From contig JAPEUD010000002.1 in the NCBI GenBank assembly GCA_026026165.1, forward strand, positions 186,001-250,000: a stretch of 64,000 nucleotides of DNA. Reading direction: 5' to 3'. The position numbers were made by a program, and so were the translations under genes. The stretch is from Sarea resinae (taxonomy: Eukaryota). Shown piece after piece: positions 4,715 through 52,015 of this stretch. Every line of letters begins with the position of its first letter. Positions within the stretch are counted from its first letter, which is position 1. The notes beneath the pieces are model-generated. The model did no database searches and was not told the DNA's origin. It saw nothing but the letters and a program-made list of their open reading frames with translations.

Positions 4715-7700
4715 ATGTCAGACACTGAAGAAACAATTGTTCTGTCTACCCCTGCGCCGCCCTCCACATCTTCTCATTCTAAAGGCTAAGCCCTCTTTCT
4801 CACACTGAACGTACCGCTTCCCTAAACCAACGATGACGATGTCAACATGACAGACGACCCGGCAAATATGGCAGAAGCACAGCCCGAAGAAACCGCTCAA
4901 CCACATAAACCTGTCACAGAATCTTTAGGACCGTCTAGAAGTTCAGAAAGCTAAAGCCGCGAGGAACCGATCACTGATCTAGCCACACAACTCGCTCTCG
5001 CTCCTACTAATGCTGTGCAGCATCCCCCGCCTACAGCCCAGTCAATGCTCACAATTCACAGAGTGAACTTTCAAAATGTTGAGCACTTTCTGTCGTACAT
5101 TAGGACCCTGGACGAGGAACTACAGAAGGAATGGTTCGCCTGATTTGTGGAAGAGATAGGAACGAAGATCGCCGAGTTCGCCTATTTGTTTACGCTTGCC
5201 GAGGATAGGATCCAACAGTATCCGGCTTTAGTCAAGTTACTCAATAGGAAGGACGCGTCCATGCAAGAATTCCGCCGAGTTGCGGCCACAGGCAGAACAG
5301 CACATAAACGAATAGCCAAGGCGAGAGCAGTTATCTAGAAAGAATAGGGATTAGACGACTCAGCGAAGCTCATGCCCCCGGATAAAATGGCAAGGAATGT
5401 CTTAGATGCTATGAAGGCCGTAGCACTGAAACATTCGTTTAAGGAATCAATGAAAATGGTCAACACAGCCGCCATCCTCCGATTACGCAAAGGCAGAGGG
5501 AGAGGAGCAAACATGATAGCAGTAGGACAGATCTCGGCTGACTGGACTGCTGTGGCCACGGCGGTAAAAGCCAAAAATCGGACTCTGACAGTCATAGACA
5601 TCACTGACGCAGAACTCGCCAAATTCAATGGTTATATTGACGGCCATAGCATCCTTCGAAAAGCGGAACCAGGGTACAACAGAAGACGAATATTTTTGAC
5701 CCAGGAAATCGAGCCGGCAGCTACCACAGAACATCAGGACAGTCCAGAAGTTGCGGACGACCATGAATCTGATCACAAAGCAGATCTGCCAGAAGCGGGC
5801 ACGCTAAACATCGGGACGGTCCAGAAGTCTGAGGATACAGAAACCCTAGACAAGAAGAAGGAAATTCCAAAAGACTGTCGCTGCTCTAAGATCGTGACCA
5901 CTGAATTCAAGACAAACATCACTAGCAAGAAAGAGGTGTCCACGACCACAGCGATGGCATATGTCGATCAATAGGCTAGATGGGTGCAGGATAGCGATGC
6001 AAGTCTCTGCCAAAGTCATTTACAAGCACTTGCCAGCCGATTTGGCCTACAGACCTCACGGCGTGACGAAGAATTAATCGAGCGCCTATCGACTATTCAG
6101 ACAACCCAGGACGTGATAGGACTTAAGGTTCGAAGAGACTCTTATTTTTGGTTTCTAAAAGATCATCGCCCAGCCTGAGAAAGTGACGCACGCGGCCTTT
6201 ATCGCTTGAAACCAGAAAACGAAGACCAGGACTATGTCCCTAGTTTGCAAGGGATTCGGAGCCAACTGACCGCTGACATGCACACCAAATGGAAAAAGGA
6301 GGGCTCAGTCATAATTCCGAACGTGGTAGCTTGGTTTGAGAAAGCAGGCCTTAGACACATTGTGAACGACGAATTCGACATGTATAGGCATTATCAGCGA
6401 GCGATAAATAGGGCGACTGACATAGGGTAGAGTCGTGCTATAATGCACTCTATTATACAACAAGTCATCCGGCAGGACCCTATAGTTTACGCGATTACAG
6501 TATTGCACAGACCAGACCACGCCACCAGTTTAGTCTCATATCCCTATTACGCTCGTCATGTCTGTCCAAACGACCGAATTGCGTTTTTCCACTTAGATCA
6601 GAACATCTGGCAAATCGTCGAAGAGGGACAAGGAGCAAACATGATACAGGTAGCTGTTTCTATAGATGAAGAAGACAACGACAATTGTGTTAGACTCCTG
6701 CTAGGCATGCATGATAAGATCGGCGATTAGGCAAAAGAAATCGCAGTCTAGGAGCCAAGGCGATACCAACAAGTTAGTAAAATTCAAGAAGTGGATACGA
6801 AATTATGGACTAAAGCGGACAAAGACAAGCTGCACCTAAAAGTGCAAAGACAGCCCTGCTCTAGATATGGCCTTCGAGTAACTATGCCTACGATTCCCCA
6901 CGGACCAGCCCTGAAACCAACAAAAGTTCGGCGCGTGATCTTCCTATGGCTCGTCAGGGTCGAGAAGGACCACAATACACTAGAGATACCCGAATCAGGG
7001 AGCTGGAATGACATAGCAATTGCGCACAGGGATTTGGTACCAGCGCCTAGCAGCCTATCAGGACATCCGAATACGCACGGTTCAGTTCCCCACAAATTCT
7101 TGGCTAGTGTAGCGGTCACTAGGCTCAGGGCCCTATCTGATGCATTGGTTAGCTAGAGGCGATAGGATGACCCTGCAGTAATCGAAGAAAGAGATATCGT
7201 TCTAGGAAGTGAGGCGCGAAAGCTGAGAGAATTTGTCGAGGAATGGCAGAGCACGGCTATAAAAATAATTAAGAAGAGTTGGACCCTAGTGGAAAAGGAG
7301 GAAAGACGCATCTACAGCCAGAAATCATTCTTTTAGGCAAGAGATCACAACGTGAACGTCACAAGCGATGATAAAGATCTAGAACCGTCTGACTACAAAT
7401 ATGACAGCGATAAGTCTGCCGAAGAAACACCTAGACTGTCTAGGAGTTTGCCCGGCACTCTAGCCAAAAGCTCAACCTCAATTCCGAAGTTAACATCACC
7501 TCAACAAACACCGTTCGAACAGGTCGCTCAGAGAGTCTGCGAAGCTAAGAATGCGCAGCAACCGCCTACTAAACCCACCACAGTCTCCTCTCTGGCAGGA
7601 GCTACGTCCCTGTCTGTTCGCCCGTCTCCCTTCGGCATAGTTACAAGTCCTATTCAGTTTGGCACCACCGTTCTTCGCCGCCGCATACCACTACGCCTAG

Positions 7701-7984
7701 TTGAGCTTCTAGAGGGCACACTAGTACTGCCACCAATCAAAGATGTTTTCGACAAGACCGTCTCCTGTCTGACCCGTGCCGCCGAGAATATAGAGCTTGA
7801 TGTGGCATTACAGCAGTTTGCCACTGTATCACCTTTAGGATCAGAGCCAGCTAGGACAACGAACAAGAGAGATCGATCAGATTCTGACGACGCGCTAGAT
7901 CCGAAACGTGTTTGTCGCTCCTCTAGAATTAGGGCTACACACCCTTCTGCTAAGCACAACGATAATGATCTTGTTGAAAGTTAA
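4715..7984 (+). pseudogene. Gypsy A cargo ORF (~1089 codons) with a PhyH-like 2OG-Fe(II) dioxygenase core
   Basis: ATG at 4715 and track ORFs 5147, 5372, 5984, 6206, 6443, 6791 and 7352 are all in one frame, separated only by RIP-type stops. FFHLDQN (HxD, 6590-6598) ... NMIQVAVSID ... NC...LGMH ... IPHG (distal His ~6899) ... RR match the double-stranded beta-helix dioxygenase pattern. Confidence 0.8.
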
Positions 7985-8015
7985 GGGGCACCTTTCACTT
8001 TGTAGAGGGGAAGGA

Positions 8016-8415
8016 TGTCATGGGTCAGAATGGTTCGGTCAGGATTAGTCAGCAAGTCACGTGCATTGTTCTTAGGGCATATGGTTCAAGGAGGATGGTG
8101 TTACGTTAAGGGGTCAGGATCAATTTAGAAGTTCATCAGTTCAGTCATGTTTAGTTTTTCAGGCAGCTTTCAAGCGCAGAGCAGTTCTTCATTCTTTAGT
8201 TAAATCAATCAATCGAGAGCTCTCCCACCACTTCCTTCCTAGAGGAGCAGTCACCTTCTGATCCCTCTGCTTCGTGCTATTCCACCGATTATGCCTCAGT
8301 AGTAGGTTGTTAAGTAGTTGTTATAGCTATCTCGTCGACTACACAAGGAGTCATCAGGACCGTCTAAGTGTTCCGCTTCAGCACTGATTTGGTGCGTCTA
8401 TTTCGTCCCTCTATA
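8016..8415 (+). repeat. 3' LTR of Gypsy A (400 bp), preceded by the polypurine tract
   Basis: TG...TA(CA) ends. The 3' end GTGCG.TCTA.TTTCGTCCCTCTATA resembles the end of LTR B. PPT at about 8004-8015. Confidence 0.85.
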
Positions 8416-10200
8416 ACGTTAGGAATGCACATTCTCTTAATTAAATTTTAGCTGTATAAACTCTCTCCTAATAACTCTAGTAGATAGCTGTATTGTATTA
8501 CTCTCTCTATAGTCTCTCTGCTATATTTATTTAGTTATGCTAAACCTAGCAACCTTTAATGTTAATATTTAAGCAAATACTTAGATAGTACACAAAGGTC
8601 TATAGCTATTAAGTCTAAACCTATAACTATTACTTTAGCTTTAATTCACTATGTTCTAAAGGTGTTACAAAGAGATCCTATATAGCGAATAGTTATCTAG
8701 CAGCAATTATATTATAATACTTTTATCTTCTAGTAGTAGCAGACTGCTTATACAGATATAGGTTAATATAGAAGCCCTTAATAGGATTCTAAGATGTAGA
8801 AAAGCACAACCTAGTCTCTCTTCTACTAAGTTGCTAATGTTATAACTAGCTGCCTAAGAGTAATGTGTTAATAATACAGATATTAGTAAGAGTATCCTAG
8901 TCTTAAAAAGACAAGCACTTCTATAATACAACAGCACTATAGCTCTTTAGAGTATACTTAGTCTCTTATAACAGGTATAATACATACACTTAAGGCTCTT
9001 TAGACTATAGTAAGATATTGCTATATGTAATAAATCTCTTAACTAATACCTCTATCCTTAATACTAGTAATATGCTTTAGCACTAAAGACTCTCTAAACC
9101 TTAGAGCTATTTTCTTAGTTAAGCTAGTAACGCTTTCTCCTTAAGATAATTCTATTAGCAAATCTTCTATAGCAGATTATAGAAAACTACTAGTTTAAAC
9201 AATGCTTTCTTCTTTACTAGCTAGGCCTTTGAATTCTAAGGCGATAATAGGTTTATAATAACATTTATAATTAATATACAAAGATCTTACTAAGGATTCT
9301 ATAGAGACTAGGCCTAGAAACTAAAATTTCTATTGCACTAGATATATAGCAGAGTCTAAATAAGATATCCTTTCTTTCTATAATAGAGTATTTTATTAAT
9401 AAAGACTAGAATTACTAGGAAGTCCTTCTAGGGTTTAAAAAGATAACTAGAGAGCACTCTAGTTGTAATATAGCTACATTACTACTTAATTAACTTTAGT
9501 GTTTTAACATTTAGGTTTGTCTTTAATGTTTATAGTAATGCTTTTAGGTAACATTACATTGTAGGATTATATACTAGCTGTAATAACAGATAACGCAGGT
9601 AATAACAACATAATGCGTTAAGAGCTAATAAGTCTACTTACTAATCACTATTAGATTGTATAGGATTATAAGGTTGCTTATATACCTTACCTTACGCATA
9701 TTATTTAGCTTGTAGTTGTGGCTTTTAATAAGTGCCTAAAAATTACTGCTTTAAATAAGTCTATATAAGATACCTAGTTAGATACAGACTAAGAGCTGCT
9801 TTAGCAGCTTCCTTCTAAAGACTCTTTTAGCAGCACGTTATAAAAGGTAAGTGCTAATAACCCTTATCTATTACTACCTCTAAAGTTTCTAGATTTATAC
9901 ACTTACTATCTATATTACTACTTTATTATAGCAAACTACGCGCTTTTATAATCTGCAGCTAACGCTAGTTAATATAATCTAAGATGTTAAAACTTAATAG
10001 AACTTAATATATAATATGCTAAAGCAGGCCTAGCAGCTATAAGATACTCTTTAGATGTTTTTTATTAGTAAAACTAGTCTTATTATATGTAGAACTTATG
10101 TCTCTCCTACTAGTTAGGACTATATTCGCTATCTAATTATCTTACTAAAGCTATTTAATAATTAGATAAGAGCTATGTCTTAGACTAAAGGCGTAACTAT
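8416..10200 (+). mobile_element. Oldest hAT copy (copy 3), internal fragment with the 5' part of the transposase, heavily RIP'd and with internal deletions
   Basis: Reverse-complement match to ~14680-16595 of copy 1 (e.g. aggaatgcacattctcttaa). Interrupted by Gypsy A on the left and Gypsy B on the right. Confidence 0.9.
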
Positions 10201-10589
10201 TATAAGAGATTAAACTAGATTGCACTAGATAAGTGCTAGACAGTCCTAAAGATATAGGAACTACTAAATTGTAATAGCGCTGCTATGCTTAATAGTTGTT
10301 GAGTGTGTTATTGTCTTAGGTCTCTCTGCTAATATATCTTAGAGAACTTAAATAGGCAGCAGAACAAGCGTATTAATTAATAGGAGCTATTAGCCTATAG
10401 CTTAGTAACTAAGTAATAAGAAGAAGAGAAGAAAACTAACGCGCTAACTGCTTGCTTAACTAAATGCTAGAAAACTAATAACTAAATACATGCTTAAAGA
10501 ACTAATAATGCCTCCTTTTAAACCCCTAAGGAACACAACCCTACTACTAACACCTAATAACTAAGCTATTACTAGTTTACCCTATCACA
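10201..10589 (-). repeat. 3' LTR of Gypsy B
   Basis: Near-identical to 36813-37201. On the minus strand it begins TGTGATAGGG after the purine tract AGGAGAGAAAGA. Confidence 0.92.
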
Positions 10590-13510
10590 TCTTTCTCTCC
10601 TATAAAAATAAAGTTAGCCCTTAACTTTACTAACACACAAAAGACATGTCTGTTAAGGAAAAGGTAGGAAAAGCGTTCCTATAACTTGTTGCCCCTACGC
10701 TTCCTAGTTAAGCAGCAGAGAGATAGGTCTGTTACCTGTCTATACAATTATAGCATTTCTTACATAGTCTAGCTATCGAACAGATTAGACAACTTATTCC
10801 CTAGTAGCAGAGCTTCTTAAACACTTTTATAAGGAGATGTTTTAGGATTTAATAATGCTGCAGTTTTCTGCTTCTTTAAAGGACAGGCTAGGAATAGTCC
10901 TTGTTGTTTACACTTATTAGGTTTAGAACTCCTAGCCTGTCTAGAAGAACCTTTGCTAATCATGTTATAAGTAAGGTCTTAAGAGAGTTAGTCTATTAGA
11001 TTAAGCAACTGCATTGCTTTTGTTATTAGTTAGTCTTAGACTTAGGCAAACTCTTTGCTTGCTGCCTTTTCTATATTATTATTAGCAAAGACTAGCTTAA
11101 TATCTAATTTAACAGCGAACTTTCCCTTAGCTAGGCTAGAGGAAACAATTTTATAGAGGTCTTCTAAAACATCTAATTCTTCTAACTGTTTAGAGTCTGT
11201 GTCATTATTAGATACATGTGTTCTGTGTTCTATAGAGTAGAAATATAATTTGTTTCTATAGAGGCGCATTTCTATTCGCTTAAATACCTTAAAGGCTTTG
11301 CAGTATTAGCTTAGGGCTTAGTGTCTCTATCGCTAAAGATATCTAGTGACCTTGTCTGCATTGTCCTCTATAAGAATTCTTCGCTCCTCTATAACTTCTA
11401 GCTTATTAAATCTCCTCTTTCTAACTAAGTAATTAGATGTAGCCCCTAACTCTATTAATAAGACTGCTGCTAGAAATTTACCTAGGACCTCTCTATACAT
11501 ATTAGGATGCCTGCTTAGGCTGTTTAGTAGAGGTGTTAGGTCTCTAAAACATGCAGATATGTTCTCCTAAGTTCCTAACTCTAAAGCCTCTAGAGTCTAG
11601 TAGTTAGTATAGACACAAACTTTCTATAGATAAATAACGCGGCAGCAAGCTATTAGCTTTTTAGTAGTCCTATAGGCAGCCTTAGGATTTGTAACTCAGA
11701 GGTCCTAGGCTTAAAGAGGCTGCGCAGTCTTTATTATGCTAAATCTTTCTTTGTCTGCTTTTATAACCTATCTTCTATTAATAGTAGTAACTTTCCTAGT
11801 GTGTGTGTATAGCTTTAGGTTGTGTTTCTTAACTTCTTTAGCCTAAAGTTTAAAGGAATAACTTATGCTAAAGTAGACTATAGTGCAATTTTGTTTATCC
11901 TTAGGTTTAATAGCAATAGCAAATTAAATTATATTTGCGCCTTAGTCCTCCTTAGCTAGCTTGCAGACATTCTAGTCTAAATAGTAGAATCCTATATAGT
12001 TGCCTTTAGATAAGGATTTAGTATAGTAAGGATAGCTAATAAGCTGTATGTTCTAGTCTAGCTAGTAGAAAACAGTAATTAGGTAATACTACAGGTCTAT
12101 GTTAATTAGCTGCTAGAAAAGAGAGTAGAACATTATCTAAACCTAACTCTAATTAGCTTTCTTATTAACCTTATGTTAATAATGTTTGTAGCACGCAAAT
12201 TCTTCCTTTACTATATCTGCTAGTCTAGGTGCTAACTCTATCTATTAGTAAGCTTTGTTAATAATAACTAATCTATTTTTATCCTAGTCTGCTATATATG
12301 TCTTAAACTGCTGTTTAGTGTAGGTATAGGTAGGTATAAACTCCTCTATATTAGTTTCTGCCTTTAACTAGTATAACCCTCTAGTATCTGCTAGGCGCTT
12401 AGGTTAGATCTTCTTACTAAACTAAACGTAGGTTTCTTTCTTAACTATAAAATCCACGAAATCTCCTAGCTAGGCTAGGAGCTCCTGAAATTGTTGTCTT
12501 AATTCTATGTCTAAAGCATTATTCTTTATGCTAATACGCGATGCAAGTGCCTTTATATAGTTTTAGCAAAGCTGTTTAGTATTATATGTCGTGTTAATTG
12601 TCTCCTACGTTTGTAATAGCTTAATCGCGATTGTAGAGGTGGCTAGTTTCTTGCTTGCAACTGTATCTAGGAGCAAAGCTAGGACCTATAGAGTATATTT
12701 ACAGCCTTTAACAACTAGCTTCTGTTTGACTTTAGATTCCTTTAACAGAATCTTCTAGCCTGTCTAGGAGTTCTTAACTAGCTGTGATACTCTAATAGTT
12801 AAATTTAACATAATATTCTTAGCCCTAAGCAATAACAACTTAGTAGCAAGTGCTTTCTTTTCTAATTCCTCTTCTAGAAACTCCTTAGGTTTCTTCTCTT
12901 TATTATTGTTAGTAGTAAGTCTCTCCTTTATAGCGTCTTTATAATCTGTCTTCTTCTTTAGTAGATCTTACAGGCTATTCTATTCTAGGTCAGCTTCTCT
13001 AAGGATCCTATACATATTAACAAGTGCTTCTACTATCTAAAGGTCTTTCTTAGTGAATAAGAAGATTTCTAACTAGGCTGTCCACTTGGGTTTAGGTACT
13101 CGGCCTAAATTAAGGTTTGGGCGGGTTAGCCCGCCCGATTACATAATCAGGTTGGGTTTGGGCGGGCTCAATTGGCTGTAGGGCCCACGGCCTACCCATC
13201 GGGTATATGCGGGTTGATTGATAAGATAAGGAGTAGATTGATAAGATAAGATTATTGAAAGGTAACACATAGAGGTAACATCTAGAGGGTAAATGCGATG
13301 AAACTATAGGAATTGTAGAATAAGAATAATAGTATAATAATACACTCTATATGTTTAGTTTATAGTGCCCTACATAATCTACACTATATGAAAACCACTA
13401 AATCATCCTCTAAACCTTTATGATGTAGTATGTTTTACCAGAACTAATTCTACTCTAACAGAGATAAATATATGCTGTAGCACATACAAAGCAAACTACT
13501 ACAGGTGTAA

Positions 13511-16338
13511 CTATTCACGCAATTGAGAAGGAAATAGACTAGTTCTAGAAGAGAGCCTCTGTGCCTTTGACCTAACAAATAAATCATCCACAGTTGAACG
13601 CGGGCGCTTTCTTTGAGACAATATAGATTGAGCGTTGTCGTGCCTAGAGCGTTAAAGCAAAGACTGCTGCTGTAAAGCAGGTTTATCTGGCTGCACTGTA
13701 GGTAGAGGTGGAAGTGGTAAAGAGTGCTCATCACTAGAAAACCTATACAGGTCTGTGTCATCCTGTATCGCAGGCCCACTATTGATTAAGGTTGGCTCAT
13801 TATCATCACTAATAACAAGTAAATGATCATCAAATTCAGCTGATAGCGTGTGTTGATAATCAGTGTCCTTAGAAATACTGTCAGATTCATCTTCACCTAT
13901 GTGGAAGCAGAGTTCATCGCGATCAAAGTACTTCACAACCATAGTGTTCCGAACTGTTTCTGCTGAAAGGCGACTTCGACAAAAGGTAATAAGGTCTCGT
14001 GCCTCATTGAAAGTCCGTTCAACACTAACAGCAGCTCTAGGTATAGCAAGAATGTCTTTTGCCATTTGTTTAAGCGAGGGCTAGTAGTGTGATCGCTAGA
14101 ACTAGTAGAATGTCAGCACCTGCACACAGAAATGTTACCCGAAAGTGTTACCTGCAAAGGATCCTTGTGATCTGTAGCTGGCGAAGATAGATACTGACTG
14201 ACTAGATCTGTAACAGAGTGATGTTGTTTCTGAAGCGTCTTGGCCTGTGCAAGTGAATTGACATCTAATGCTGATATAGAGAGTGCAGCAACATCTGAGG
14301 AGGCAACTTTAGTTCTTGCATAATGCAACTGATAATAGTCCTCAAATTCGCGCCGGTACTTTCGCAAATATTCATGGCCCTAGTCATCAGACTTCTCAGC
14401 TATTAGCAAAACATTCCTAGAGGACGAGGTAAAGGTAACAGATTTAGGTAACATACTTTATATAGATCAAGCCTTGTTAAGGGATCAAGGATGCATGCTA
14501 AATTGAACATTCTCCCTTGTACTCCTTCAGTATCTCGGTAGTACTTAGAGAGCTTAGTCTTTGCTGCTTCTATAGCAGAAGTAAGCTCTTGTTTCTAGGG
14601 TGTCCGCTTAGGCCGCATCTTGTTTAGATGCTTCTCTAAGTGCTCAAAAATCTGAGAGTATACAAACCAGGTCTTGTAGATAGTTACGCCTTTAGTCTGA
14701 GACACAGCTCTTGTCCAATCATCAAATGGCTTTAGTAAGACAATCAGATAGCGAATATAGTCCTAACCAGTAGGAGAGACACGAGTTCTGCGTATAGCAG
14801 GACTAGTTTCGCTAACAAGAAACATCTGAAGGGCATCTCGCAGCTGCCAGGCCCGCTTCAGCATATTATATGTTGAGTTCCATCGAGTTTTAACATCTTG
14901 GATCATATTGACTAGCGTTAGCTGCAGATCACAAAAGCACGCAGTTCGCTGTGATAAAGCAGCAATATAGACAGCAAGTGCACGAATCTAGAAACTTTAG
15001 AGGTAGTAATAGACAAGGGTTGTTAGCACTTACCTTTTGCAACGTGCTGCTAAAAGAGTCTTCAGAAGGAAGCTGCTGAAGCAGCTCTTAGTCTGCATCT
15101 GACTAGGTATCTTGTATAGACTCGTTCGAAGCAGTAATTTTCAGGCACTTATTAAAAGCCACGACTGCAAGCTGAATGACATGCGCAAGGCAAGGCACAC
15201 GAGCAACCTCATGATCCTATACAATCTGATGGTGATTAGCGAGTAGACTTGTCAGCTCTCGACGCATTGTGTTGTTGTTGCCTGCGTTATCTGTTGTCAC
15301 AGCCAGTATGCGATCCTACAATGTAATGTTACCTAAAAGCGTTACTATAAACATTAAAGACAAACCTGAATGTTGAAACACTGAAGTCGATTGAGTAGTA
15401 ACGTAGCTATGTTGCGACTAGAGTGCTCCCTAGTCATCTTTTCAAACCCTAGGAGGACTTCCTAGTAATTCCAGTCTTCGTCAATAAAATACCCTATTAT
15501 AGAAAGAAAGGATATCTTATTTAGACTCTGCTATGCATCTAGTGCGATAGAAATTTTGGTTTCTAGGCCTAGTCTCTGCAGGATCCTTGGTAAGATCTCT
15601 GTATATCGATTATAAATGTTATTATGAACCCATTGTCGCCCTGGAATTCGAAGGCCTGGCTAGCAAAGGAGGAAGCATTGTTTGAACCAGTGGTTTTCTA
15701 TGATCCGCCATAGAAGATTTGCTGATAGAATTATCTTAAGGAGGAGGCGTTGCCAGCTTAACTAAGAGAATGGCTCTGAGGTTTAGGGAGTCTTTAGTGC
15801 TAAAGCACGTTGCTAGCATTAAGGATAGAGGTATTAGTTAAGAGATCTATTACATATAGCGATATCTTACTGTAGTCTAAAGAGCCTCAAGTGTGCGCAT
15901 TGTGCCTGCTGCAGGAGACTGAGCACACTCTAGAGAGCTATAGTGCTGTTTCATTGCAGAAGTGCCTGTCCCCTTAAGACTAGGATGCTCTTGCCGACGT
16001 CTGCATCGTCGACACATTACCCCTAGGCGGCCAGTTGCAACATCAGCAACCTGGTAGAAGAGAGACTAGGTTGTGCTTTTCCGCGTCCTAGAATCCTATT
16101 GAGGGCTTCTATGTTGACCTATATCTGCATAAGCAGTCTGCTGCCACCAGAAGATAAAAGTATCATGATATGATTGCTGCCAGATAACCATTCGCCGTGT
16201 AGGATCCCTCTGTAACACCTCTAGAACATAGTGAATCGAAGCTGAAGTAATAGTCGTAGGTTTAGACTCAATAGCTGTAGACCTTTGTGTACTATCCCTA
16301 AGTTCCTTATAGTCTGATGTTTCAAACGAATTAGACAT
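13511..16338 (-). pseudogene. hAT transposase (spliced, RIP-damaged)
   Basis: C-terminal hAT dimerisation motif MAKDILAIP..AVSVERTFNEARDLIT..RSRLSAETV. AVTTDNAGNN, RVPCLAHVIQL and DVKTRWNSTY core motifs on the minus strand. Cys/His BED-like N-terminal region near 15.9-16.05 kb. 3' end approximate. Confidence 0.9.
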
Positions 16339-16724
16339 TGTAAAGGAGAAATTTGCAGCGATAAGAAAGTGCAGAAGGCCTCAGAACGTACAGCAGAGTG
16401 AAGAGGTAGGAAGTGCCCTTAACTAGAGAAGTATTTGCTCAAATGTCGACATTAAAGGTTGCTAGGTTTAGCATAACTAAACAAACACAGCAGGGAGACT
16501 ACAGAGAGAGTAATACAATACAGCTGTCTACTAGAGTCATTAGGAGAGAGTTTATGCAGCTAAAATTTGATTAAGAGAATGTGCATTCCTGACGTGATTA
16601 ATGTACGCAATGTTACTAGTAAGTGTTACCTTTTTAGTAAACCAAATTCCAGAGAAAAAGTGAAAATCCACCCCTAGGCAGACACAGACCAATAAAGAAA
16701 AGCCACTCGGCTATAACTGCCCCC

Positions 16725-18584
16725 CTACTTATCGCCATCCCTAGCAGCACTAGAACTAGAGTCCTCCCCTTCAGCATTGTCAGCAGAGTCATCCTTACTC
16801 TCCTCTGCATTGACAGGAACATTCTCAGCCGTTGTCAGCAGAGCCTCCTCTATAGCAGATCCAGCAATAGCAGGGTCCTCTCCTTTAGGAATGTCCTCTA
16901 GCTGAGTTTTCTCTCCCATAGTCGGCAGCACAAAGTCTTCCTTATCACTTGAGATTGGGTCAATATCCTTATCAGATGACAGAAACACTTCTGCTTCTGA
17001 ATTGCTGAACCTAGCAAAATCAGTCCCAGCCTCTGTGTCACTGTCAGAGAGGGTTGCACGGTCCTTAACCCGCTCTACAAACTCTAACATTGCCTCCTTT
17101 GGATTGAGATCACCAGCTTCCACCAGATCATCATAGCTATAGCGGTGGATGTCTCTCTTATAGCGGCGGACCACTTTTAGCAAGCGACTTCTAATGCGTT
17201 TGCCCTATGCTCTAAATGACAAGTCAGGCTCATCTGAATTTTGTCCCTGCTGAACCAATTAGACAAATGCTGCAAAGAAACGTTACCTAAAAGTGTTACC
17301 TTAGGATCGGCACCACTATCAGGTTAGCTATCTCTATTGTCTTTAAGTAGCAAGATATTAACAACATCCTTAACTATCTGCTTGTCGTCCTTAGCCTTTG
17401 CTTTCTCTGCCTTGATAGCCTTTTGCTGCTGCATAGTAACCCACTCAGCAGACTGGTGGAGGAAAAAGCGTCGTTCTATCAATTTGTCTATTTCAGGGTC
17501 CACAACAGTCTCCTCAAAGTCTTGTCGTTGTGCTGTTGTCATACTAGCGTAATTATTCTCGCGACAGAGTTTGCCTCTCAGGGTGGATTTTGCTTTCCTA
17601 TCTGCTCTATCTGCTTTTTTCAGTGTCTTCTTAAACTCAGTATCGCTGAGTTTACTATCTAGCTCTAACTCTAATGCTTCAGACTTCGCTTCCTTAAGCT
17701 GCGCTCTGGCGATCTGTTGTTGTTTGCTGTAGGGAACCATCCTAGGCCTTATCTCACTAGCATGACGTCTTTGTGGGCGGGCTTTCACACGTTCTACTAG
17801 GCTAGCCATCTCTAGGTCGAATGTTCCCTTAGGATGAGAGGAAGTTGTAGGGGTTGCACTGCAAGTTGCACTGATGTCAGTCACTGGCAAACAATGTTAC
17901 CTGAATGTGTTACCTTAGACGTCTCTTCCTAGGAGCAGGAGAGTCTAAGCTCTCTAGCTCATTATCAAGGTCAATCTCCTTCTGCTTCTGTCCCTTAGAT
18001 ATAGTCCTATTGCTTCATTAGCTTTGTGTTTAGAAGTGTTACTAGGATGTGTTACTGCTTCTGCTTCTTATAAGCCTTTCCTACTTTGTCTGAAAACTTT
18101 GCTTTTCTAACCTTGTCTGAGAAATTTGCTTTTGTCTTCTTAACAACAGAGACTATCTCAACTTTATCGCTGCTGTTATTACTAGAGTAGCACTGTCAGC
18201 AGATATCTACAGAATGTGTTACCTAAATGCGTTACCTAGCCTCACTATCTGTCTTCTTATTACCACTTCCTTTCTGACTGCTGCTACTATGCAAGGAATT
18301 GTTCATAACCCTATCCTCAAGATCTATAGGCAGTTAGTTATTGTCTTTGTGTTCTTCTATATCTAGACTTAGCGCAGTTGTGCTGGATTTAGCTTTCTCA
18401 AGCTTTTGCTGTTTCCTGAACTAATGTAAGCCTTCTGTAGTACTATTGTTACCTTAATGTGTTACCCTTAGCTCTGAGCTGCTAGTAGGCTATGATTTCT
18501 AGGAAGAAGTAAGTTTCACCTCACTTTTATCTCACTTAGAAGTCTAGAACTCACCTCTTCTTTATGATAACAGTTTTCTCTATA
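16725..18584 (-). pseudogene. hAT cargo ORF2, multi-exon, Lys/Glu-rich with an acidic C-terminus, function unknown
   Basis: Track ORFs 17324-17890 and 16725-17183, plus upstream exons separated by short GT-AG introns with CTRAY branch sites. Conserved in copy 2. Start codon inferred from a RIP'd ATG and approximate. Confidence 0.6.
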
Positions 18585-18707
18585 GCTGCCTTGTCTTAAG
18601 AGGAGCTTGTAAGAGATGTAAGTGATTTAGAGGGTAATTAGCCAGCTATCTTATCACTTTCTACTGCCTAAACAGTTAGGGAGTTGATAGGATTAATGAA
18701 ATTGATG

Positions 18708-19163
18708 AAATCTTAATGATGTTGATGACAGAAGTGATGAAATTAGAGAGAAAGAGCAACCCTCCTGCTATAGGAGAAGGTTGCTGATGATGTAGGTGGT
18801 AAGGTTGAATTGCGTAGTGGATTTAGGCACGCAAGATTCAGGCGGAAGGTACGTACCTTATTGAACGGTCAATAACATTCACTGCAAGGTACGTACCTTA
18901 TTAAACAGTCAATAACATTCACTGCAAGGTACGTACCTTATTGACCAGCCAATAACACTGACTGAGGTACGTACCTTGCAGTGAATGTTTACCTTAATAT
19001 CACACAGGTCTACCACTCAATTCAACCTTACCACCTACATCATCAGCAACCTTCTCCTATAGCAGGAGGATTGCTCTCTCTTATCAACTTCGTCACTTCT
19101 GTTATCAAACTGACAAGACTTGATAAACTTTATCACTTCTGTTATCAGCATCATTAAGATTTC
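18708..19163. promoter_or_regulatory. Quasi-palindromic intergenic region (putative bidirectional promoter) between divergent ORF2 and the H3-like gene
   Basis: Inverted arms (~18708-18820 versus ~19008-19163) enclose three 40-bp tandem units carrying the palindrome AAGGTACGTACCTT, plus one inverted unit. Confidence 0.6.
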
Positions 19164-19443
19164 TCTCTTAGTGCTCTTTAAGTTTTAAGGTTAAGGTGAG
19201 TTTCAGAACTACTGCTTGATAGTAACACATTTAGGTAACATTTGAGACTGCAAAGGCACTCAGCTAATTATTCCTAACTACAGACAACTCTCTGGATTCT
19301 TTCTTCAATACCAACTAAAGATTCTCCTTTAGCACTCTCTACACTACACTCTCACTCTCTTGACATAATCATAGTCACTAATACAGTAAGTTATTCTTTC
19401 CTGCCTCTACTAGTAACACTTAATAGTAACATTTTACTAGACA

Positions 19444-20176
19444 ATGGCTTGTACTAAGCGTACTGCCCGCAAGACTGTCCCTAGTACTAGTGGGAAAGGA
19501 AAAGGAAAAGGCAAGGGAATGTCTGCTGCTAAGGCTCATCGTGTTACTAGTGGCAAATCCCCACGCAAGAACTTGGCTAGCATGGCAGCACGCAAAGGTC
19601 GTCTTGCTACTAGACAATGCTTCACTACTAGCACATATGCTGAACGCTAAAAGGCCTACAAAGATGCTATGAAAGCATAGGTTCGTGAGGATACTGCCTT
19701 TTATGGTCGTGGTGAGGTTTATAGTGTGCCTAAACCAATCCAACCCTGTCGCACTCGTCTAGGCAGTAAGTCTCAGTCTCTAAACTCTAAGGGTAACACA
19801 TTATAGTAACATTTGAACACCACAGCATCCGCACTCTGTGAAATCAAGAGATTGCAAAAATCTGTTGATTTAGTCATTCTAAAGCTCCCTTTCCAGCGCC
19901 TGGTCTGCGAGGTTACATCTTATCACCGCTACCTCCCTAGAGAGCTCTGTTTTCAGTCATCAGCTATGTATGCCTTGCAAGAAGCCACTAAGGCTTTCAT
20001 AGTTAGGTTCTTTGAAAGTGAGTTTTTCTATCTCTTCTTCTATCCTATACTTAATTTTTCTAGATGTGCTTTAGGCCTGCATTCATCAGAACCGTGTGAC
20101 TATCAATCACAAAGACACTCAGTTTATCAAGGCTTTGATGAAGGGCTTTGGTATCTAGATCTCTAGTGACACATAG
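19444..20176 (+). pseudogene. Divergent histone H3-like gene inside hAT copy 1 (coding exons ~19444-19765, 19826-20017, 20064-20158/20176)
   Basis: MA(R)TKRTARK...T(G)GKSPRKNLASMAARK tail. After splicing: (P)GT-SAL(R)EIKRLQKSVDLVI(P)KLPFQRLV(R)EV...EL(R)FQSSAMYALQEAT(E)AF...FE-NVL.ACIH(R)NRVTINHKDTQ, a complete H3 histone fold. A few RIP-type stops. Confidence 0.93.
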
Positions 20177-22654
20177 GTTAAGTTTCTATAGCATTGGCTC
20201 TAAGGTTTTACTGGTCCTAGTGGCGCAATTAGGGATGCAATTAGGGATGCAGTTAGGGATGCAATCAGGGCTTCTCTAGTCTTCTAGTCACAGGTCATAG
20301 GAAGTCATAAGAGGCTTATAGTTTTTCTCTGCCTTTTAGCATTTTCAGTCTTTACTTTACTTAGTCTACAATAAAGACTCAATAGACTTAGTAACACATA
20401 TAGGTAACATTCGTAGGGTAATAGCGGCTTTTTAATGCTCTGTGAAACATGCCCTGCAATCTATGCTATTTTAGCTACCATCTTTATGTCACGTGACAGG
20501 TACCCACGCCCACCTACTAGGTCCTGTCAGGCGGGTTGATTAGGGCATAGGTACTCGATACCTATGCCTAGGCGGGTTCTTCTACCCCTACCCGCCTAGT
20601 GGGTACCTAAGTGGACACCCTATTTCTAACTTTTTGCCTTTCTCTAACTTTTTAAGAGCCTTTGCTAGTCGTTCCTAATCCTTAGAAGTTTGCTTAACAA
20701 CAGATTTAGAAAGCCCTTGCTTTCTTCCTCCTATAAGTTATTGTATAGCTTCTAAGTTTACTATTCTTATCGCCTTATTAAATAGATACTAAGCTGTAAC
20801 ATGCTTTATATTGTCTAGGTGATTTCTAGACATTTCTGCTTCTAGCAGATAACAGGCATTATTATCTCTCTACTTATTTCTAATCTTTTGTCTTCCTTTA
20901 GCAATGCGCTTCTTCTTATTATAGGATTCCTTAGTAAGATTAAATATCTTAAGGATGTTGCCTATCTAGTGCGTCTTAATATACTTAGCTAACACTAAGT
21001 CCTTTTTAACTTCTTTAACACTCTATTTATACATCTACAAATAACAGGTATAGTGCTTACTTATCTTATTAATAAAAGTCTTATAGAAGTTGACTTTTTC
21101 TTAGGGGTTAGCTATTATGCTTATATAAGTGTAAATAGATTCTACATTCTAGAATAGGATGCTAGAAATAGTTATAAACATATCTTTTGCCTTAAGCGCT
21201 GTTGTACTAGGTGTAGCTAGTGTAAGAGAGGTGTAGGGCAAGGTAGAAGACATATTAGTCCTCTAGTTTTCTTCTAGTTAGTCCTAGAGATTAGACTGTG
21301 TGATATGTCTTAGAGAACTTAACTTAGCTGCTAGCGCTTCTAATATTAAGGTGTCTACTTCTTCTTCCTAGGTATTGCTAAGTGATTGCTTAATGTATGC
21401 TTACCTAGCAAGTAGTTCTTTAGCTAGTTTAGTTTAGCTATGTGATTTAAGGGCTTCTTCTAGTCCTTTGCCTTTAAATTCTTCACAGATAATAGAGAGA
21501 TTAAGCTGTGTAGTAAGGGTAATAAAGAGGTCCTAGCTGTTGCCTTTAGATAAGGTAGATAGAGGTGCTAGGGTTTCTTCTTATATAGACAATTGCTAGC
21601 CAGCTATTTTTAGCGATTCTTATCTCCTAGACTATCTAGAAGATTAGAGAGAGCAAATATCCTTAAGAGTATAAAAAGATTTTTCTCCTAGGAATGCTAA
21701 GAGATTATAAATAACTATAGAGCGTGATTAGATAAGAGAGGCAATTATGCAGATTTTCGCTTATTATCTAATAAGGCGTTAGACAGCAAGTGCTAATAGT
21801 AAGCAAGCTAATAAGGTAAGAAGCATAAGCAAGCTAATTAAGAAGAGAGGTCTATAATAGGTAAATAATATAGGAAGAGCAGATAAGACAGCAGCAGCAG
21901 AAATTGCATAAGAAGTAGGAAAATATTTAGAGAAGATAGAGGCAAGCAGGCAGAAGATGTTTTCTTATAGTCCTTGCTTAGAGTGTATATAACTAGATTC
22001 CTGCTAATAATTGTTAGATATTAGCGTAAAAAAAGTGTTATCTTGCTTTTCTTTATAGTGAATTTTAGCGTGTTATTAAGCTAAAGTAGTAGCTGCAGCG
22101 TTAGTGATGCGCTTAAGCAAGGTTCTTTGTTATCTGTATTGCTTCTTTATTTACCCTTACTTTTATGCGTGTTTCGCACCTAAAAGTAAGGTGAAAGTGA
22201 GATAAATTTAAGATAAGGTTAAGCGAGTAGTAAAAACAATCTTTGCAACGCTAACTAAGGCGAATAGTAGCTGTAAGGCAGATATATAGTGCTTATATAA
22301 GTTAGGAATGCTTGTCATGCGATTTTACTAACTTATAGCGTGTTGTTAAATTTAGATAGAGGCTGCATGCTTTGTAGTGTTACCCTTTAGGTCTGACTAG
22401 AAGATTAGGCTAGTAGAGTCTGTTTTGCCTTAATATAAGCTAAAGAAGTAAAGTAATATAATGTGTAATAAATTAGAAATGTTATTGCAGATTGTTAGGT
22501 ATACTATGCTATACAATATAAGCTACGCCTCTTACACCTCTAGCAAGGTAGACTATAGTTAAAAAGATCTAGCTAGATAAGGTTATGCATATACACACCT
22601 CTCTCTAGTTTCTTTTAAAACTTCTAGCTAGGCTAGAAAGTTTTGTGCTATATA

Positions 22655-25600: not shown

Positions 25601-26845
25601 ATAGTTTGTATCTCTTGCGCTAGCACTACCTTCTTTTAGACCTTGCTAATTTCTAAGAAGTCCTACACAAGGGCCTTCTTATAATTATAAAGCATTACAG
25701 TAAGCATCTCTTTCTCTTAATCTAATATGCTGTCTCCTACAACTATTATCTCTAATCTTTTAGGTGTAATACAAGATCTCTTTTACAACTTTAAAAACTT
25801 TAGAATTAGCAACGTGTTAAAGTCTTCTTCTAGACAGTCTAGGTCTTTTTTGTGTAACGTTCTGTAGTTTAACGTGTCTTTCTCTTCTAACTCTCTTTTC
25901 TAGTCTTTTACTCCTCTAGGCTTGCTACTATCTAACACTAAAGTGTTAACTAGTCTAACTTTATCTCTCTTTTTCTTATACATTGTATAGATATAGGCTA
26001 AGTTAACATTTCCTTTCAGATTTAACTCTAGATTAAGCATCCTCTTAGAAAACTAGTAAGTTTCTCCTTAACCTATGTGTAACGCTTTAAACTCCTTAAC
26101 TAAATCATTATTCTTCTAGTCTGTCCTAGAGAAATCCCTAGCCTTATTATCTAGTTTCTATCTGTCTTTTTCTTCTAAGCCTTGCTGTGTTAGTCTTATA
26201 GTTATAGCAAACACCTGCTTAGGATAGCGTCTGCTATCTAGTTTAAACAGTTCTAGCTAGAGAACATATTAGTATGCCTCTTATTAGACAAACTTCCTAC
26301 CTATGCTGCACTAAACATCTTTAAATAATGTTAGTCCTCTAAGAACACAGTGTATATTGTTATTCTGTTATCCTATACCTTAGTGTGTATACAAGCAGCA
26401 ATCTAATACAGTTAACTAAGGATAAGCAGTTAATCTAGTTAAGTAGTGATAAAAATAGGTACCTTGCTAGTAATACCTCTAATATCGACTTTAATATCTT
26501 TAGCGCATCCTATAAATAGTGCTGGCTTTCCTTTAATGCTAATTATTGTAGTAGCTAGTTAAGGAGTCTAACTTAGCCTAAGATTCTTTGCTGTTAATAG
26601 ACTTATTAGATATATCTTAGCACTACTATCTAATAGTCCTCTTATTCTCCTTTTTCCTTTAATGCTCACTTCTACTATTATACACCTAGCAGCATATAAC
26701 GTGGAATTTAGTATTTCTTTATCAGTATAATTATTGCTTTCTATCTTTCTAACTATTACTAGGCGATCTATATTATACTGTCTAGCTGCGAGATAGCCTT
26801 CTAACCTTCTGCCTAAAGGGTACAACTTATCTCTAAGGTTCTTAA
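22655..26845 (-). pseudogene. pol: Gypsy B pol (protease, RT, RNase H, integrase), heavily RIP'd
   Basis: Protease-like LLDS(G)A(E)I near 26630. Minus-strand sequence is collinear with pol A (e.g. VKKKS(G)KY, NLLPLVEEFS(E)EFA, integrase SVAKFL region). Confidence 0.9.
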
Positions 26846-27290
26846 AGAAAAGCTAGGCTGTCTACTTAGGTTTAGGTACTCAGCCTAAATTAAGGTTTAG
26901 GCAGGTTAGCCCGCCTGATTACATAATCGGGTTGGGTTTAGGCGGGCTCAATTGGCTGTAGGGCCTACAGCCTACCTATTAAGTATATGCAGGTTGATTA
27001 ATAAGATAAGGAGTAGATTAATAAGATAAGATTATTGAAAGGTAACATATAGAGGTAACATCTAGAGGGTAAATGCGATAAAACTATAGGAATTGTAGAA
27101 TAAGAATAATAGTATAATAATACACTCTATATGTTTAGTTTATAGTGTCCTACATAATCTACACTATATAAAAACCACTAAATCATCCTCTAAACCTTTA
27201 TAATGTAGCATGTTTTACTAGAACTAATTCTACTCTAACAGAGACAAATATATGCTGTAGCACATACAAAGCAAACTACTACAGGTGTAA

Positions 27291-30118
27291 CTATTCACGC
27301 AATTGAGAAGGAAATAGACTAGTTCTAGAAGAGAGCCTCTGTGCCTTTGACCTAACAAATAAATTATCTACAGTTAAACGCAGGCGCTTTCTTTAAGACA
27401 ATATAGATTGAGCGTTGTTGTGCCTAGAGCGTTAAAGCAAAGACTGCTGCTGTAAAGCAGGTTTATCTAGCTGCACTATAGGTAGAGGTAGAAGTAGTAA
27501 AGAGTGCTTATCACTAGAAAACCTATACAGGTCTGTGTTATCCTGTATCGCAGGCCTACTATTGATTAAGGTTAGCTTATTATTATCACTAATAACAAGT
27601 AAATAATCATCAAATTCAGCTGATAGCGTGTGTTAATAATTAGTGTCCTTAGAAATACTGTCAGATTTATCTTCACCTATATAGAAGCAGAGTTTATCGC
27701 GATTAAAGTGCTTTACAACTATAGTGTTCTGAACTGTTTCTGCTAAAAGGCGACTTTAATAAAAGGTAATAAGGTCTTATGCCTTATTAAAAGTCTGTTC
27801 AACACTAATAGCAGCTCTAGGTATAGCAAGAATGTCTTTTGCTATTTGTTTAAGCGAGGGCTAGTAGTGTGATCGCCAGAACTAGTAGAATGTTAGCACC
27901 TGCACACAGAAATGTTACCTGAAAGTGTTACCTGCAAAGGATCCTTGTAATCTGTAGCTAGCGAAGATAGATACTGACTGACTAGATCTGTAACAAAGCG
28001 ATGTTGTTTCTGAAGCGTCTTAGCCTATGCAAGTGAATTGACATCTAATGCTGATATAAGGAGTGCAGCAACATCTAAGGAGGCAACTTTAGTTCTTGCA
28101 TAATGCAACTGATAATAGTCCTTAAATTCGCGCCGGTACTTTCGCAAATATTCATGGCCCTAGTTATTAGACTTCTTAGCTATTAGCAAAACATTCCTAG
28201 AGGATAAGGTAAAGGTAATAGATTTAGGTAACATACTTTATATAGATTAAGCCTTGTTAAGGGATTAAGGATGCATGCTAAATTAAACATTCTCCTCTGT
28301 ACTCCTTTAGTATCTTAGTAGTACTTAGAGAGCTTAGTCTTTGCTGCTTCTATAGCAGAAGTAAGCTCTTGTTTCTAAGGTGTCTGCTTAAGCCGTATCT
28401 TGTTTAGATGCTTCTCTAAGTGCTTAAAAATCTGAGAGTATACAAACTAGGTCTTGTAGATAGTTACGCCTTTAGTCTAAGACACAGCTCTTGTCTAATC
28501 ATTAAATAGCTTTAGTAAGACAATTAGATAGCGAATATAGTCCTAACTAGTAGGAGAGACACGAGTTCTGCGTATAGCAGGACTAGTTTCGCTAATAAGA
28601 AACATCTAAAGGGCATCTCGCAGCTGCTAGGCCTGCTTCAGCATATTATATGTTGAGTTCTATTAAGTTTTAACATCTTAGATCATATTGACTAGCGTTA
28701 GCTACAGATCACAAAAGCGCGTAGTTCGCTGTGATAAAGCAGCAATATAGACAGCAAGTGCACAAATCTAGAAACTTTAGAGGTAGTAATAGACAAGGGT
28801 TGTTAGCACTTACCTTTTGCAACGTGCTGCTAAAAGAGTCTTTAGAAGGAAGCTGCTAAAGCAGCTCTTAGTCTGTATCTAACTAGGTATCTTGTATAGA
28901 CTTGTTTAAAGCAGTAATTTTTAGGCACTTATTAAAAGCCACGACTGCAAGCTGAATAACATGCGTAAGGCAAGGCATATAAGCAACCTTATAATCCTAT
29001 ACAATCTAATAGTGATTAGCGAGTAGACTTGTTAGCTCTTAACGCATTGTGTTGTTATTGCCTGCGTTATCTGTTGTCACAGCTAGTATGCAATCCTACA
29101 ATGTAATGTTACCTAAAAGCGTTACTATAAACATTAAAGACAAACCTAAATGTTGAAACACTAAAGTCGATTAAGTAGTAACGTAGCTATGTTGCGACTA
29201 GAGTGCTCTCTAGTTATCTTTTCAAACCCTAGGAGGACTTCCTAGTAATTCTAGTCTTTGTCAATAAAATACCCTATTATAGAAAGAAAGGATATCTTAT
29301 TTAGACTCTGCTATACATCTAGTGCGATAGAAATTTTGGTTTCTAGGCCTAGTCTCTGCAGGATCCTTAGTAAGATCTCTGTATATCGATTATAAATGTT
29401 ATTATAAACCTATTGTCGCCCTAGAATTCGAAGGCCTAGCTAGCAAAGGAGGAAGCATTGTTTAAACCAGTGGTTTTCTATGATCTGCTATAGAAGATTT
29501 GCTGATAGAATTATCTTAAGGAAGAGGCGTTGCTAGCTTAACTAAGAGAATAGCTCTAAGGTTTAGAGAGTCTTTAGTGCTAAAGCACGTTGCTAGCATT
29601 AAGGATAGAGGTATTAGTTAAGAGATCTATTACATATAGCGATATCTTACTGTAGTCTAAAGAGCCTTAAGTGTGCGCATTGTGCCTGCTGTAAGAGACT
29701 AAGCACACTCTAGAGAGCTATAGTGCTGTTTTATTGCAGAAGTGCCTGTCCCTTTAAGACTAGGATGCTCTTGCTAACGTCTGCATTGTCGACATATTAC
29801 CCCTAGGCGGCTAGTTGCAACATTAGTAACTTAGTAGAAGAGAGACTAGGTTGTGCTTTTCCGCGTCCTAGAATCCTATTAAGGGCTTCTATGTTGACCT
29901 ATATCTGCATAAGCAGTCTGCTGCCACTAGAAGATAAAAGTATCATGATATAATTGCTGCTAGATAACTATTCGCTGTGTAGGATCCCTCTGTAACACCT
30001 CTAGAACATAGTGAATCGAAGCTGAAGTAATAGTCGTAGGTTTAGACTTAATAGCTGTAGACCTTTGTGTACTATCCCTAAGTTCCTTATAGTCTGATGT
30101 TTCAAACGAATTAGATAT
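27291..30118 (-). pseudogene. hAT transposase, copy 2
   Basis: Collinear with 13511-16338 (offset 13780). Start codon mutated to ATA. Confidence 0.88.
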
Positions 30119-30504
30119 TGTAAAGGAGAAATTTGCAGCGATAAGAAAGTGCAGAAGGCCTTAGAACGTACAGCAGAGTGAAGAGGTAGGAAGTGCCCTT
30201 AACTAGAGAAGTATTTGCTTAAATGTTGACATTAAAGGTTGCTAGGTTTAGCATAACTAAACAAACACAGCAGAGAGACTATAGAGAGAGTAATACAATA
30301 CAGCTGTCTACTAGAGTCATTAGGAGAGAGTTTATGCAGCTAAAATTTGATTAAGAGAATGTGCATTCCTAACGTGATTAATGTACGCAATGTTACTAGT
30401 AAGTGTTACCTTTTTAGTAAACTAAATTCTAGAGAAAAAGTGAAAATCCACCCCTAGGCAGACACAGACTAATAAAGAAAAGCCACTTAGCTATAACTGC
30501 CTCT

Positions 30505-36811: not shown

Positions 36812-36812
36812 A

Positions 36813-52013: not shown

Positions 52014-52015
<2 letters not shown>

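Follow-up and report, generated by a model that had tools for sequence, protein, structure and literature searches.

Fungal DNA transposons of the hAT superfamily bearing a histone H3-like gene have been in print since 2013, and only as cases of accidental gene capture. In Pyrenophora tritici-repentis, such an element combines a transposase, a central open reading frame (ORF) and an H3-like gene named H3L; the report describes 26 near-identical H3L genes with tail insertions, expressed sequence tags for H3L, a 2.3-kb derivative encoding a chimera of the central ORF and the transposase, and an H3L sequence that fits neither H3 nor the centromeric variant CenH3 (Manning 2013, PMC3538342). In Pseudocercospora fijiensis, a 9.5-kb hAT element with an H3-like sequence was found alongside 784 H3-like copies, all disabled through repeat-induced point mutation (RIP); similar events were recorded in five other Mycosphaerellaceae (six in all) and read as transcript capture, separate from the Pyrenophora event (Dhillon 2019, PMC6710886). 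Both reports call such elements ‘transduplications’ (Manning 2013, PMC3538342; Dhillon 2019, PMC6710886). Here, we analyze a stretch of 64,000 nucleotides of the Sarea resinae contig JAPEUD010000002.1 (assembly GCA_026026165.1, forward-strand positions 186,001 to 250,000; ‘the window’, to which all coordinates refer), which holds two full-length copies of a hAT element with a transposase, a central ORF and an H3-like gene that we likewise term H3L.

A first-pass annotation of the window had recognized this element and stated that it knew of no described example. This statement does not stand, as such elements are described in Pyrenophora (PMC3538342) and in six Mycosphaerellaceae (PMC6710886), and the type was in substance already catalogued by these papers. 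The kind of element is hence already known; the window copy adds to it a new member, dead and, judging from its sequence, only distantly related to the Pyrenophora type. What is new here is the comparative evidence for the histone and the central ORF as conserved genes of the element, which changes the published reading of an accidental capture. Our literature search recovered no functional study of a transposon-borne H3L and no paper treating H3L as a conserved element gene. With moderate confidence, we favor the view that this is a three-gene hAT element in which H3L provides a selected function of the element, exerted at the level of the protein.

The hAT element and its three genes

The two full-length copies, A (positions 13074-20622, 7,549 bp) and B (26854-34429, plus strand, with heavier RIP), are each bounded by terminal inverted repeats (TIRs) and by a perfect target-site duplication (TSD) of 8 bp. 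The TSDs differ between the copies: TTTCTAAC stands at 13066-13073 and again at 20623-20630 in the case of copy A, and AGAAAAGC at 26846-26853 and 34430-34437 in that of copy B. The left TIR of copy A, TAGGCTGTCCACTTGGG (13074-13090, plus strand), and the right one, the reverse complement of TAGGGTGTCCACTTAGG (20606-20622, minus strand), pair over about 17 bp with two mismatches and start with TAGGC/TAGGG, which we take to fit the usual hAT terminal consensus; the first seven nucleotides of the left TIR, TAGGCTG, are also the TIR of a metagenome element, L002, considered below. Aligned end to end, the two copies are 94.1% identical with a single 27-bp indel. Given the 8-bp TSDs, the TIRs and a hAT dimerization domain, copies A and B are a hAT DNA transposon that moves three genes as one unit, which are, in the direction of the transposase, H3L (on the opposite strand), the central ORF and the transposase. 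The first-pass annotation was thus right in its account of two full copies with TIRs and different perfect TSDs, each with a transposase, a second ORF and a spliced H3-like gene. It was also right that the histone gene travels with the element, since this gene lies inside the TIRs of two copies with different TSDs, and L002 holds the three genes from TIR to TIR. No Rfam family was matched on the element.

The transposase gene (13652-16338, minus strand), delineated by Pfam, tblastn and motif evidence, comprises several exons and is interrupted by RIP-type stops. Pfam Dimer_Tnp_hAT (PF05699) is matched in 13652-14065 (minus strand) with 22.9 bits against a cut-off of 21.4. In tblastn, residues 27-677 of the Pyrenophora hAT transposase P0178 align to 15743-13748 and residues 71-150 of P0176 to 16158-15916 (the N-terminal segment), with an identity of about 30-40% along the Pyrenophora transposase. 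The translation retains the motifs DVKTRWNSTY, TTDNAGNNNTM and CLAHVIQL. In the search for the RNase-H-like catalytic core, PF14372 scored 16.7 bits on a read-through segment of the RIP-damaged gene, below its cut-off of 27, and an N-terminal zinc finger had no Pfam match. Only five proteins were matched by a transposase segment with two stops read as X, and the three named ones are all hAT proteins of P. tritici-repentis (~31% identity).

H3L lies on the plus strand in three exons. Exon 1 (19444-19765) encodes the tail, with a GK repeat and a 39-residue insertion, and is followed by intron 1 (19766-19825, 60 nt, GTAAGT...CACAG), in phase 1 within the Thr codon of PG-T-VAL. Exon 2 (19826-20017), which carries the Pfam Histone match, encodes alphaN, alpha1, a long loop 1 and alpha2; intron 2 (20018-20063, 46 nt, GTGAGT...TCTAG) lies in phase 1 in the codon after F-E, and exon 3 (20064-20158) encodes alpha3 and a divergent C-terminus up to the terminal TAG at 20156-20158. 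The Histone domain (PF00125) is matched in 19810-20019 (plus strand) with an E-value of 1.6e-12 and 48.2 bits. A third intron within the 39-residue insertion was considered and rejected, as removal of its 44 nt would disrupt the reading frame.

The spliced product of copy A has 202 residues and, in alignment, shows the H3-type motifs ARTK, ARK, GGK-PRK, AARK, PGTVALREI and YQKS, several of which are blurred in the window by RIP-type changes (Cys for Arg at codon 3, ALCEI). Most of the protein features listed in the first pass hold, namely the GK repeat with a second motif (STSGK and VTSGK), 39 extra residues after AARKG, that is, after K27, a loop 1 longer by three residues, the change of S10 to Thr and of S28 to Gly, and the loss of the K79 context. 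The exception is the ARTK start, as codon 3 of copy A is TGT and the DNA reads M-A-C-T-K. In H3 residue numbering, the window protein keeps R69, R116 and H113; Cys stands at R49 and R83 in copies A and B alike, and at R72 in copy A alone. In-frame stops occur in copy A at 19648 (TAA), 19678 (TAG) and 20072 (TAG), and copy B has eight, along with ATA in place of the ATG. Therefore, both H3L genes are pseudogenes as they stand. In a HMMER search with the H3L read-through, the top matches were concatenated canonical H3s, with no specific relative and no Pyrenophora H3L among the matches listed (150 of 3,086).

Separately from this element family, the best matches to the window H3L fold in a word-indexed protein search (up to 62% identity) belong to another multicopy H3-like family (P0001, P0002, P0004, P0006, P0010-P0012, P0014-P0018, P0020 and P0021), characterized by long N-terminal extensions, the motif QKSVDLLIPLLPFQRL, a C-terminus ending in INLWW and many changes of Arg to Cys, Trp, His or Gln.

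The central ORF (ORF2; 16725-17809, minus strand) includes an open part of 161 residues (17324-17809), of which an acidic 121-residue ORF at 16725-17090 may be the continuation. Access to its Pyrenophora counterpart came from the protein P0177, in which 315 non-transposase residues are followed by the C-terminal part, two thirds in length, of the transposase P0178; this fits the published chimera (Manning 2013, PMC3538342) and thus gives the Pyrenophora central-ORF sequence. ORF2 aligns in BLASTP with this part of P0177 at 32% identity over 65 residues (E 4e-5). A hidden Markov model (HMM) of the first central-ORF exon, built without the window and the metagenome locus L062 and searched against 7,530 six-frame ORFs, matched only the metagenome loci L001-L003, ORF2 of copy A (7.4e-9) and copy B (6.6e-6) and the ORF in the same position in L062 (1.1e-7). 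These matches identify the window ORF2 as a homolog, on sequence grounds, of the Pyrenophora central ORF, with detectable conservation limited to a domain of ~65 residues. HMMs of the later central-ORF exons (B and C) matched L001-L003 only, and not 16725-17090. ORF2 matched no Pfam family, found no homolog of near length in the protein search and had no usable match in the protein atlas. An AlphaFold2 model of the central ORF consists of long helices (predicted local distance difference test score 70.6, predicted template modeling score 0.34).

On the Pyrenophora side, P0177 was seen to be without a conserved 16-residue block (GGALE-IMR--Y--G-type; alignment columns ~222-237) that L001-L003 encode in frame; this block is probably spliced out in the annotated gene model of the chimera.

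Comparison with the described elements

The window element has the gene order and the three-gene set between one pair of TIRs in common with the Pyrenophora H3L hAT. Insertions in the tail at the N-terminus and variability of the histone fold, described for the Pyrenophora H3L (Manning 2013, PMC3538342), are likewise seen in the window H3L. The elements differ in length (5.6 kb in Pyrenophora vs 7.5 kb in the window), and their proteins are only ~30-40% identical. The window H3L is longer than that of Pyrenophora (202 residues, with the 39-residue insertion after K27), and RIP has mutated the window copies, in contrast to the near-identical, expressed copies of Pyrenophora (Manning 2013, PMC3538342).

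The Mycosphaerellaceae family (P. fijiensis, Cercospora zeae-maydis, Sphaerulina and relatives) likewise consists of hAT elements with an 8-bp TSD that carry an H3-like sequence and, as in the window, is limited to AT-rich blocks, with all copies inactivated by RIP and a CpA>TpA bias. However, it is ~9.5 kb long and carries one or two H3-like copies as an intron-less retrocopy, in contrast to the two introns of the window H3L, and the available sections of the report mention no central ORF (Dhillon 2019, PMC6710886). Its consensus termini, TAGAGGTTAG... and TAGACCCCGT... (C. zeae-maydis, P. fijiensis), also differ from TAGGCTGTCC of the window, and none of the consensus sequences supplied with that report contains the window TIR core. 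Thus, the window element is not of the Mycosphaerellaceae family.

Relatives of the element in metagenome contigs

Relatives were drawn from a metagenome set of 80 loci, pulled from contigs with an alignment of these transposases, 22 of which contain at least 3.3 kb upstream of the transposase. Tblastn with H3 queries detected an H3-like gene in seven of the 80. In six, all among the 22 with long flanks, it lies upstream on the opposite strand, and in the seventh, L048, it belongs to an adjoining copy. Seven of 80 is a lower bound, as L076 and L080 align in DNA over the H3-like region of another locus, L023, and were missed by the protein search. The linkage of H3-like genes to hAT transposases claimed for the window is hence also seen in these six of 22 loci and, in L002, within the TIRs.

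Four of these loci, L001-L003 and L062, have the three-gene unit in the order of the window. The transposases of L001-L003 are 55-71% identical to that of Pyrenophora, and the ORF between their H3L and transposase is 36-41% identical to the Pyrenophora central ORF. The contig L002, of 5,902 bp, begins with TAGGCTGGCAAAAA and ends with its reverse complement, and thus spans an entire element from TIR to TIR. An intact H3L of 142-164 residues is present in L001, L002, L003 and L062, and the gene of L040 is intact too. The position and phase of intron 1 are common to the window, L001, L002 and L062 (L003 is without this intron), and those of intron 2 to the window, L001, L002, L003, L062 and the very divergent L023 and L040. 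The four intact H3Ls keep the DNA-contact arginines R49, R69, R72, R83 and R116, plus H113, while the H3L alignment shows frequent loss of R63, a lengthened loop 1 and another sequence in place of the last helix (RRIRGERA). In a transposase tree of 68 rows, obtained by a quick search, all H3-linked rows fall in one clade of 55 rows with a Shimodaira–Hasegawa-like approximate likelihood ratio support of 99, and the window transposase is a long branch in a poorly resolved part of it.

The set also contains a family of larger elements of ~15.7 kb (L023 at ~850-16540; also L040, L048, L076, L080 and L060) with a related hAT transposase. They have a very divergent H3-fold gene ~7 kb upstream of it with a proline-rich C-terminal extension; a central-ORF homolog was not detected in this family.

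Constraint on the H3L protein and its origin

Nei–Gojobori counts over 81-82 fold codons of L001, L002, L003 and L062 give a proportion of non-synonymous differences (pN) of 0.22-0.35 against one of synonymous differences (pS) of 0.70-0.94. The ratio of non-synonymous to synonymous substitution rates (dN/dS) is 0.13 in the two pairs with a computable dS, while in most pairs dS is saturated, so that the ratios there are bounds and not estimates. Between two subfamilies of the 15.7-kb elements, L023 and L040, dN/dS is 0.14 over 149 codons, and between the recent copies L023 and L048 it is 1.29. These codon comparisons indicate strong constraint on the H3L protein between element lineages and neutral decay between recent copies, a pattern that is usual for a gene which active elements need and dead copies lose. 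The earlier suggestion that the histone is a working part and not decaying cargo is therefore favored in the light of these results: H3-like genes of this kind occur in several lineages and not in one, and their dN/dS between lineages (~0.13-0.14) is not neutral. This is also where we part from the published reading of passive transduplication, by which a host H3 gene or transcript was caught by chance and then amplified as cargo, decaying without any role (Manning 2013, PMC3538342; Dhillon 2019, PMC6710886). The window, where all H3L copies are RIP-dead, and the neutral ratio of L023 and L048 accord with it. However, individual copies of any transposon gene, even the transposase, should decay neutrally, and several observations run counter to mere cargo: the intact H3-like ORFs with retained splice sites at five loci (L001, L002, L003, L062 and L040), the low non-synonymous against saturated synonymous divergence, and the same place, strand and introns of H3L across transposases only ~30% identical. 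We thus regard passive transduplication as unlikely. The persistence of H3L in place, structure and protein sequence across such distant transposases is rather the signature of a gene that the element needs.

The constraint on the protein bears equally on the notion that H3-like transcripts act by themselves, as small RNAs or by titrating host H3 expression, with the protein being irrelevant. This was raised, and called unlikely, in the Pyrenophora study (Manning 2013, PMC3538342), and the multicopy nature of the family would suit it. Yet pN is far below pS, the frames are intact and the splice sites conserved. Moreover, the nucleotide identity to canonical H3, which is 51-55% for the H3-like copies of P. 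fijiensis (Dhillon 2019, PMC6710886), is presumably too low for homology-dependent silencing. An effect at the RNA level is, in our estimate, highly improbable.

Several points weigh against H3L being a selected function of the element, in addition to the saturation of dS. There is no functional copy in the window, with three stops in the H3L of copy A and eight in that of copy B. The transposase tree holds a subclade of 17 rows without H3-like genes, nine loci of which have long upstream flanks. The central ORF is without a recognizable family or fold, and Foldseek against the Protein Data Bank gave no match at E <= 0.001. Further such points concern the ancestry of the window H3L: its fold is 44-52% identical to other H3Ls and ~55-56% to canonical H3, it lies in a polytomy of the H3 tree, and only 32% of bootstrap trees unite all five H3Ls in one clade.

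These last points lead to a further alternative, namely that related hATs took a host H3 several times, so that the window and Pyrenophora-type H3Ls would not be orthologous, whether useful or not. The window H3L is as similar to canonical H3 as to other H3Ls, the consensus termini of C. zeae-maydis and P. fijiensis differ from the window TIR, and intron positions in common could derive from host H3 genes. Separate events in Pyrenophora and Mycosphaerellaceae have indeed been argued for, with an intron-less retrocopy in P. fijiensis (Dhillon 2019, PMC6710886). Against such recurrence, the window, L001-L003 and L062 all have H3L next to a homologous central ORF, with order and orientation unchanged. 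In the H3 tree, the H3Ls of L001, L002, L003 and L062 form a clade (support 80/91), and the window H3L stands beside it in the said polytomy. Adding the window sequence is not rejected, as constraining the five H3Ls to one clade costs 0.42 log-likelihood units (approximately unbiased (AU) test, p 0.43). Taken with the bootstrap value, this makes a single origin of H3L compatible with the data, though not demonstrated. All told, we deem repeated capture rather unlikely.

A possible role in chromatin

Fungal repeats are silenced through trimethylation of histone H3 at lysine 9 (H3K9me3), HP1 and DNA methylation, and are mutated by RIP; a histone that blunts these processes would benefit the element. 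The sequence features of H3L lead us to infer an anti-silencing, decoy or variant-nucleosome function. In active copies, H3L would be transcribed divergently from the central ORF via their common intergenic region (18722-19108, also present in copy B). This putative promoter region contains 100-nt inverted arms (18722-18821 and 19009-19108) that flank a 40-bp tandem repeat of 3.3 units (18846-18977). The protein would pair with H4 and enter nucleosomes, where the altered tail, the longer loop 1 and the replaced C-terminal (four-helix-bundle) helix would create a distinct nucleosome, read or written differently by the silencing machinery. Such a nucleosome would serve the element, most likely by blunting silencing based on H3K9 and H3K27, or else by marking element chromatin. 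A candidate partner of H3L is the protein of the central ORF, helical and acidic, which might handle or deposit H3L, and the resulting element nucleosomes could resist or redirect H3K9/K27 methylation, DNA methylation or RIP. In its fullest form, the proposal would be that a hAT lineage comprising the Pyrenophora type, the elements of this genome and those of several metagenome lineages has long kept, under selection, a chromatin module of two genes, H3L and the central ORF, and that this module builds element-specific nucleosomes countering silencing; we offer this tentatively, as something that falls well short of probable.

Likenesses to known systems can be drawn at several levels. CenH3/CENP-A is also a divergent H3 with a lengthened loop 1, and the loop of H3L is longer by three residues in the window and L002 and by one in L001 and L062. 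Unlike CenH3, H3L has canonical tail motifs (an ARTK-type start, GGK-PRK, AARK), is multicopy in a transposon and has a replaced C-terminus. CenH3 identity was accordingly rejected, as the tail is alignable to canonical H3 and the gene sits in a multicopy transposon. The bracovirus histone CvBV-H4, which we take to be a viral H4 delivered to another organism, differs from H3L, an H3 variant that would presumably act, if at all, in the nucleus of its own host. The two are alike in being tail-modified variants of a core histone, carried by a mobile parasite, that could enter host chromatin (Talbert 2022, PMC9145170). A closer parallel to our working model is provided by transposons that keep an extra gene acting on the silencing marks of the host: TET/JBP dioxygenases in fungal DNA transposons including hAT7, SET methyltransferases in HarbingerS/MuDR elements of Phytophthora, and the anti-silencing proteins of VANDAL elements (Kojima 2025, PMC12730594). 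In contrast to these enzymes or sequence-specific regulators, H3L is the histone substrate itself, and would act as such.

Were the proposed role of H3L true, silencing would be opposed here by a transposon that brings its own histone. If the element indeed needs the gene, nature offers an experiment in which a core histone variant comes from a genomic parasite, with a bearing on the evasion of H3K9me3, DNA methylation and RIP in fungi. For chromatin research, H3L is a new H3 variant with a possible partner protein, and the intact metagenome and Pyrenophora sequences make the question testable.

RIP, family size and nesting in the window

The 416 substitutions between copies A and B include 371 of the types C>T or G>A in B. 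CpA is the site of 152 of the 208 C>T changes, and TpG that of 117 of the 163 G>A changes. The gene-rich flank has a TpA/ApT ratio of 0.65; that of copy A is 1.29 and that of copy B 1.73. Every copy in the window is RIP-mutated, and the copies seen in this genome are inactivated by RIP. In one public DNA run, which may be of the sample from which the window came, 1,946 contig pieces have a match of at least 80% to the element; the variable places among them comprise 253 C>T and 245 G>A against 31 T>C and 18 A>G. The directions of mutation in these pieces place copy A with the least mutated copies of a family that is multicopy and affected by RIP. Two further runs of the same study (X2 and X3) gave no cover of the element, which is not evidence of its absence.

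A third, broken copy, C, had escaped the first-pass annotation. Its first part (38818-37201, minus strand, 85.6% identity) corresponds to copy A positions 1-1611 and its second (10207-8413, minus strand) to positions 1599-3525, where it ends; it is thereby truncated short of ORF2 and H3L and contains neither. Copy C is split by an insertion of ~27 kb, bounded by 300-bp direct repeats (10193-10492 and 36805-37104, 93% identical), and copies A and B sit inside that insertion. This nested and split arrangement implies that the family transposed at no fewer than two different times. The element is dead in this window, and its main significance there is that it helped to build the AT-rich repeat block.

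The ~27-kb insertion itself resembles a heavily RIP-mutated long terminal repeat retrotransposon, with a retropepsin-like stretch at 26568-26852 (minus strand). A less mutated retroelement lies in the repeat region 1-8400, with a reverse-transcriptase-like ORF at 871-1455.

Additional repeats, motifs and the gene-rich flank

The element contains further short repeats. One of 12 bp in 3.8 units (GCAATTAGGGAT) lies 3' of H3L at 20225-20270 and is present in copy B. A 20-bp bipartite motif, GTAACAC-N6-RGTAACAY, occurs nine times in copy A (13262, 14132, 16610, 17894, 18036, 19222, 19413, 19793 and 20391) and not once in 33 kb of non-element window. Its sites are in H3L intron 1, just 5' of the start codons of H3L and ORF2, in a transposase intron and near both ends. 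At eight of the nine, the strand of the motif is that of the nearby gene, the exception being 13262, a plus-strand site at the left end, past the transposase, which is on the minus strand. L001-L003 each have four to six occurrences of a comparable pair, TTATCACA-N-TTATCACA, including in H3L intron 1 of L001 and L002.

In the gene-rich flank, at 51034-52172, an ORF of the urease-accessory (UreG-like) type continues into low-complexity sequence rich in His and Pro, and another ORF, with a long poly-Gly run, overlaps it; the probable explanation is either an unspliced intron or low-complexity sequence.

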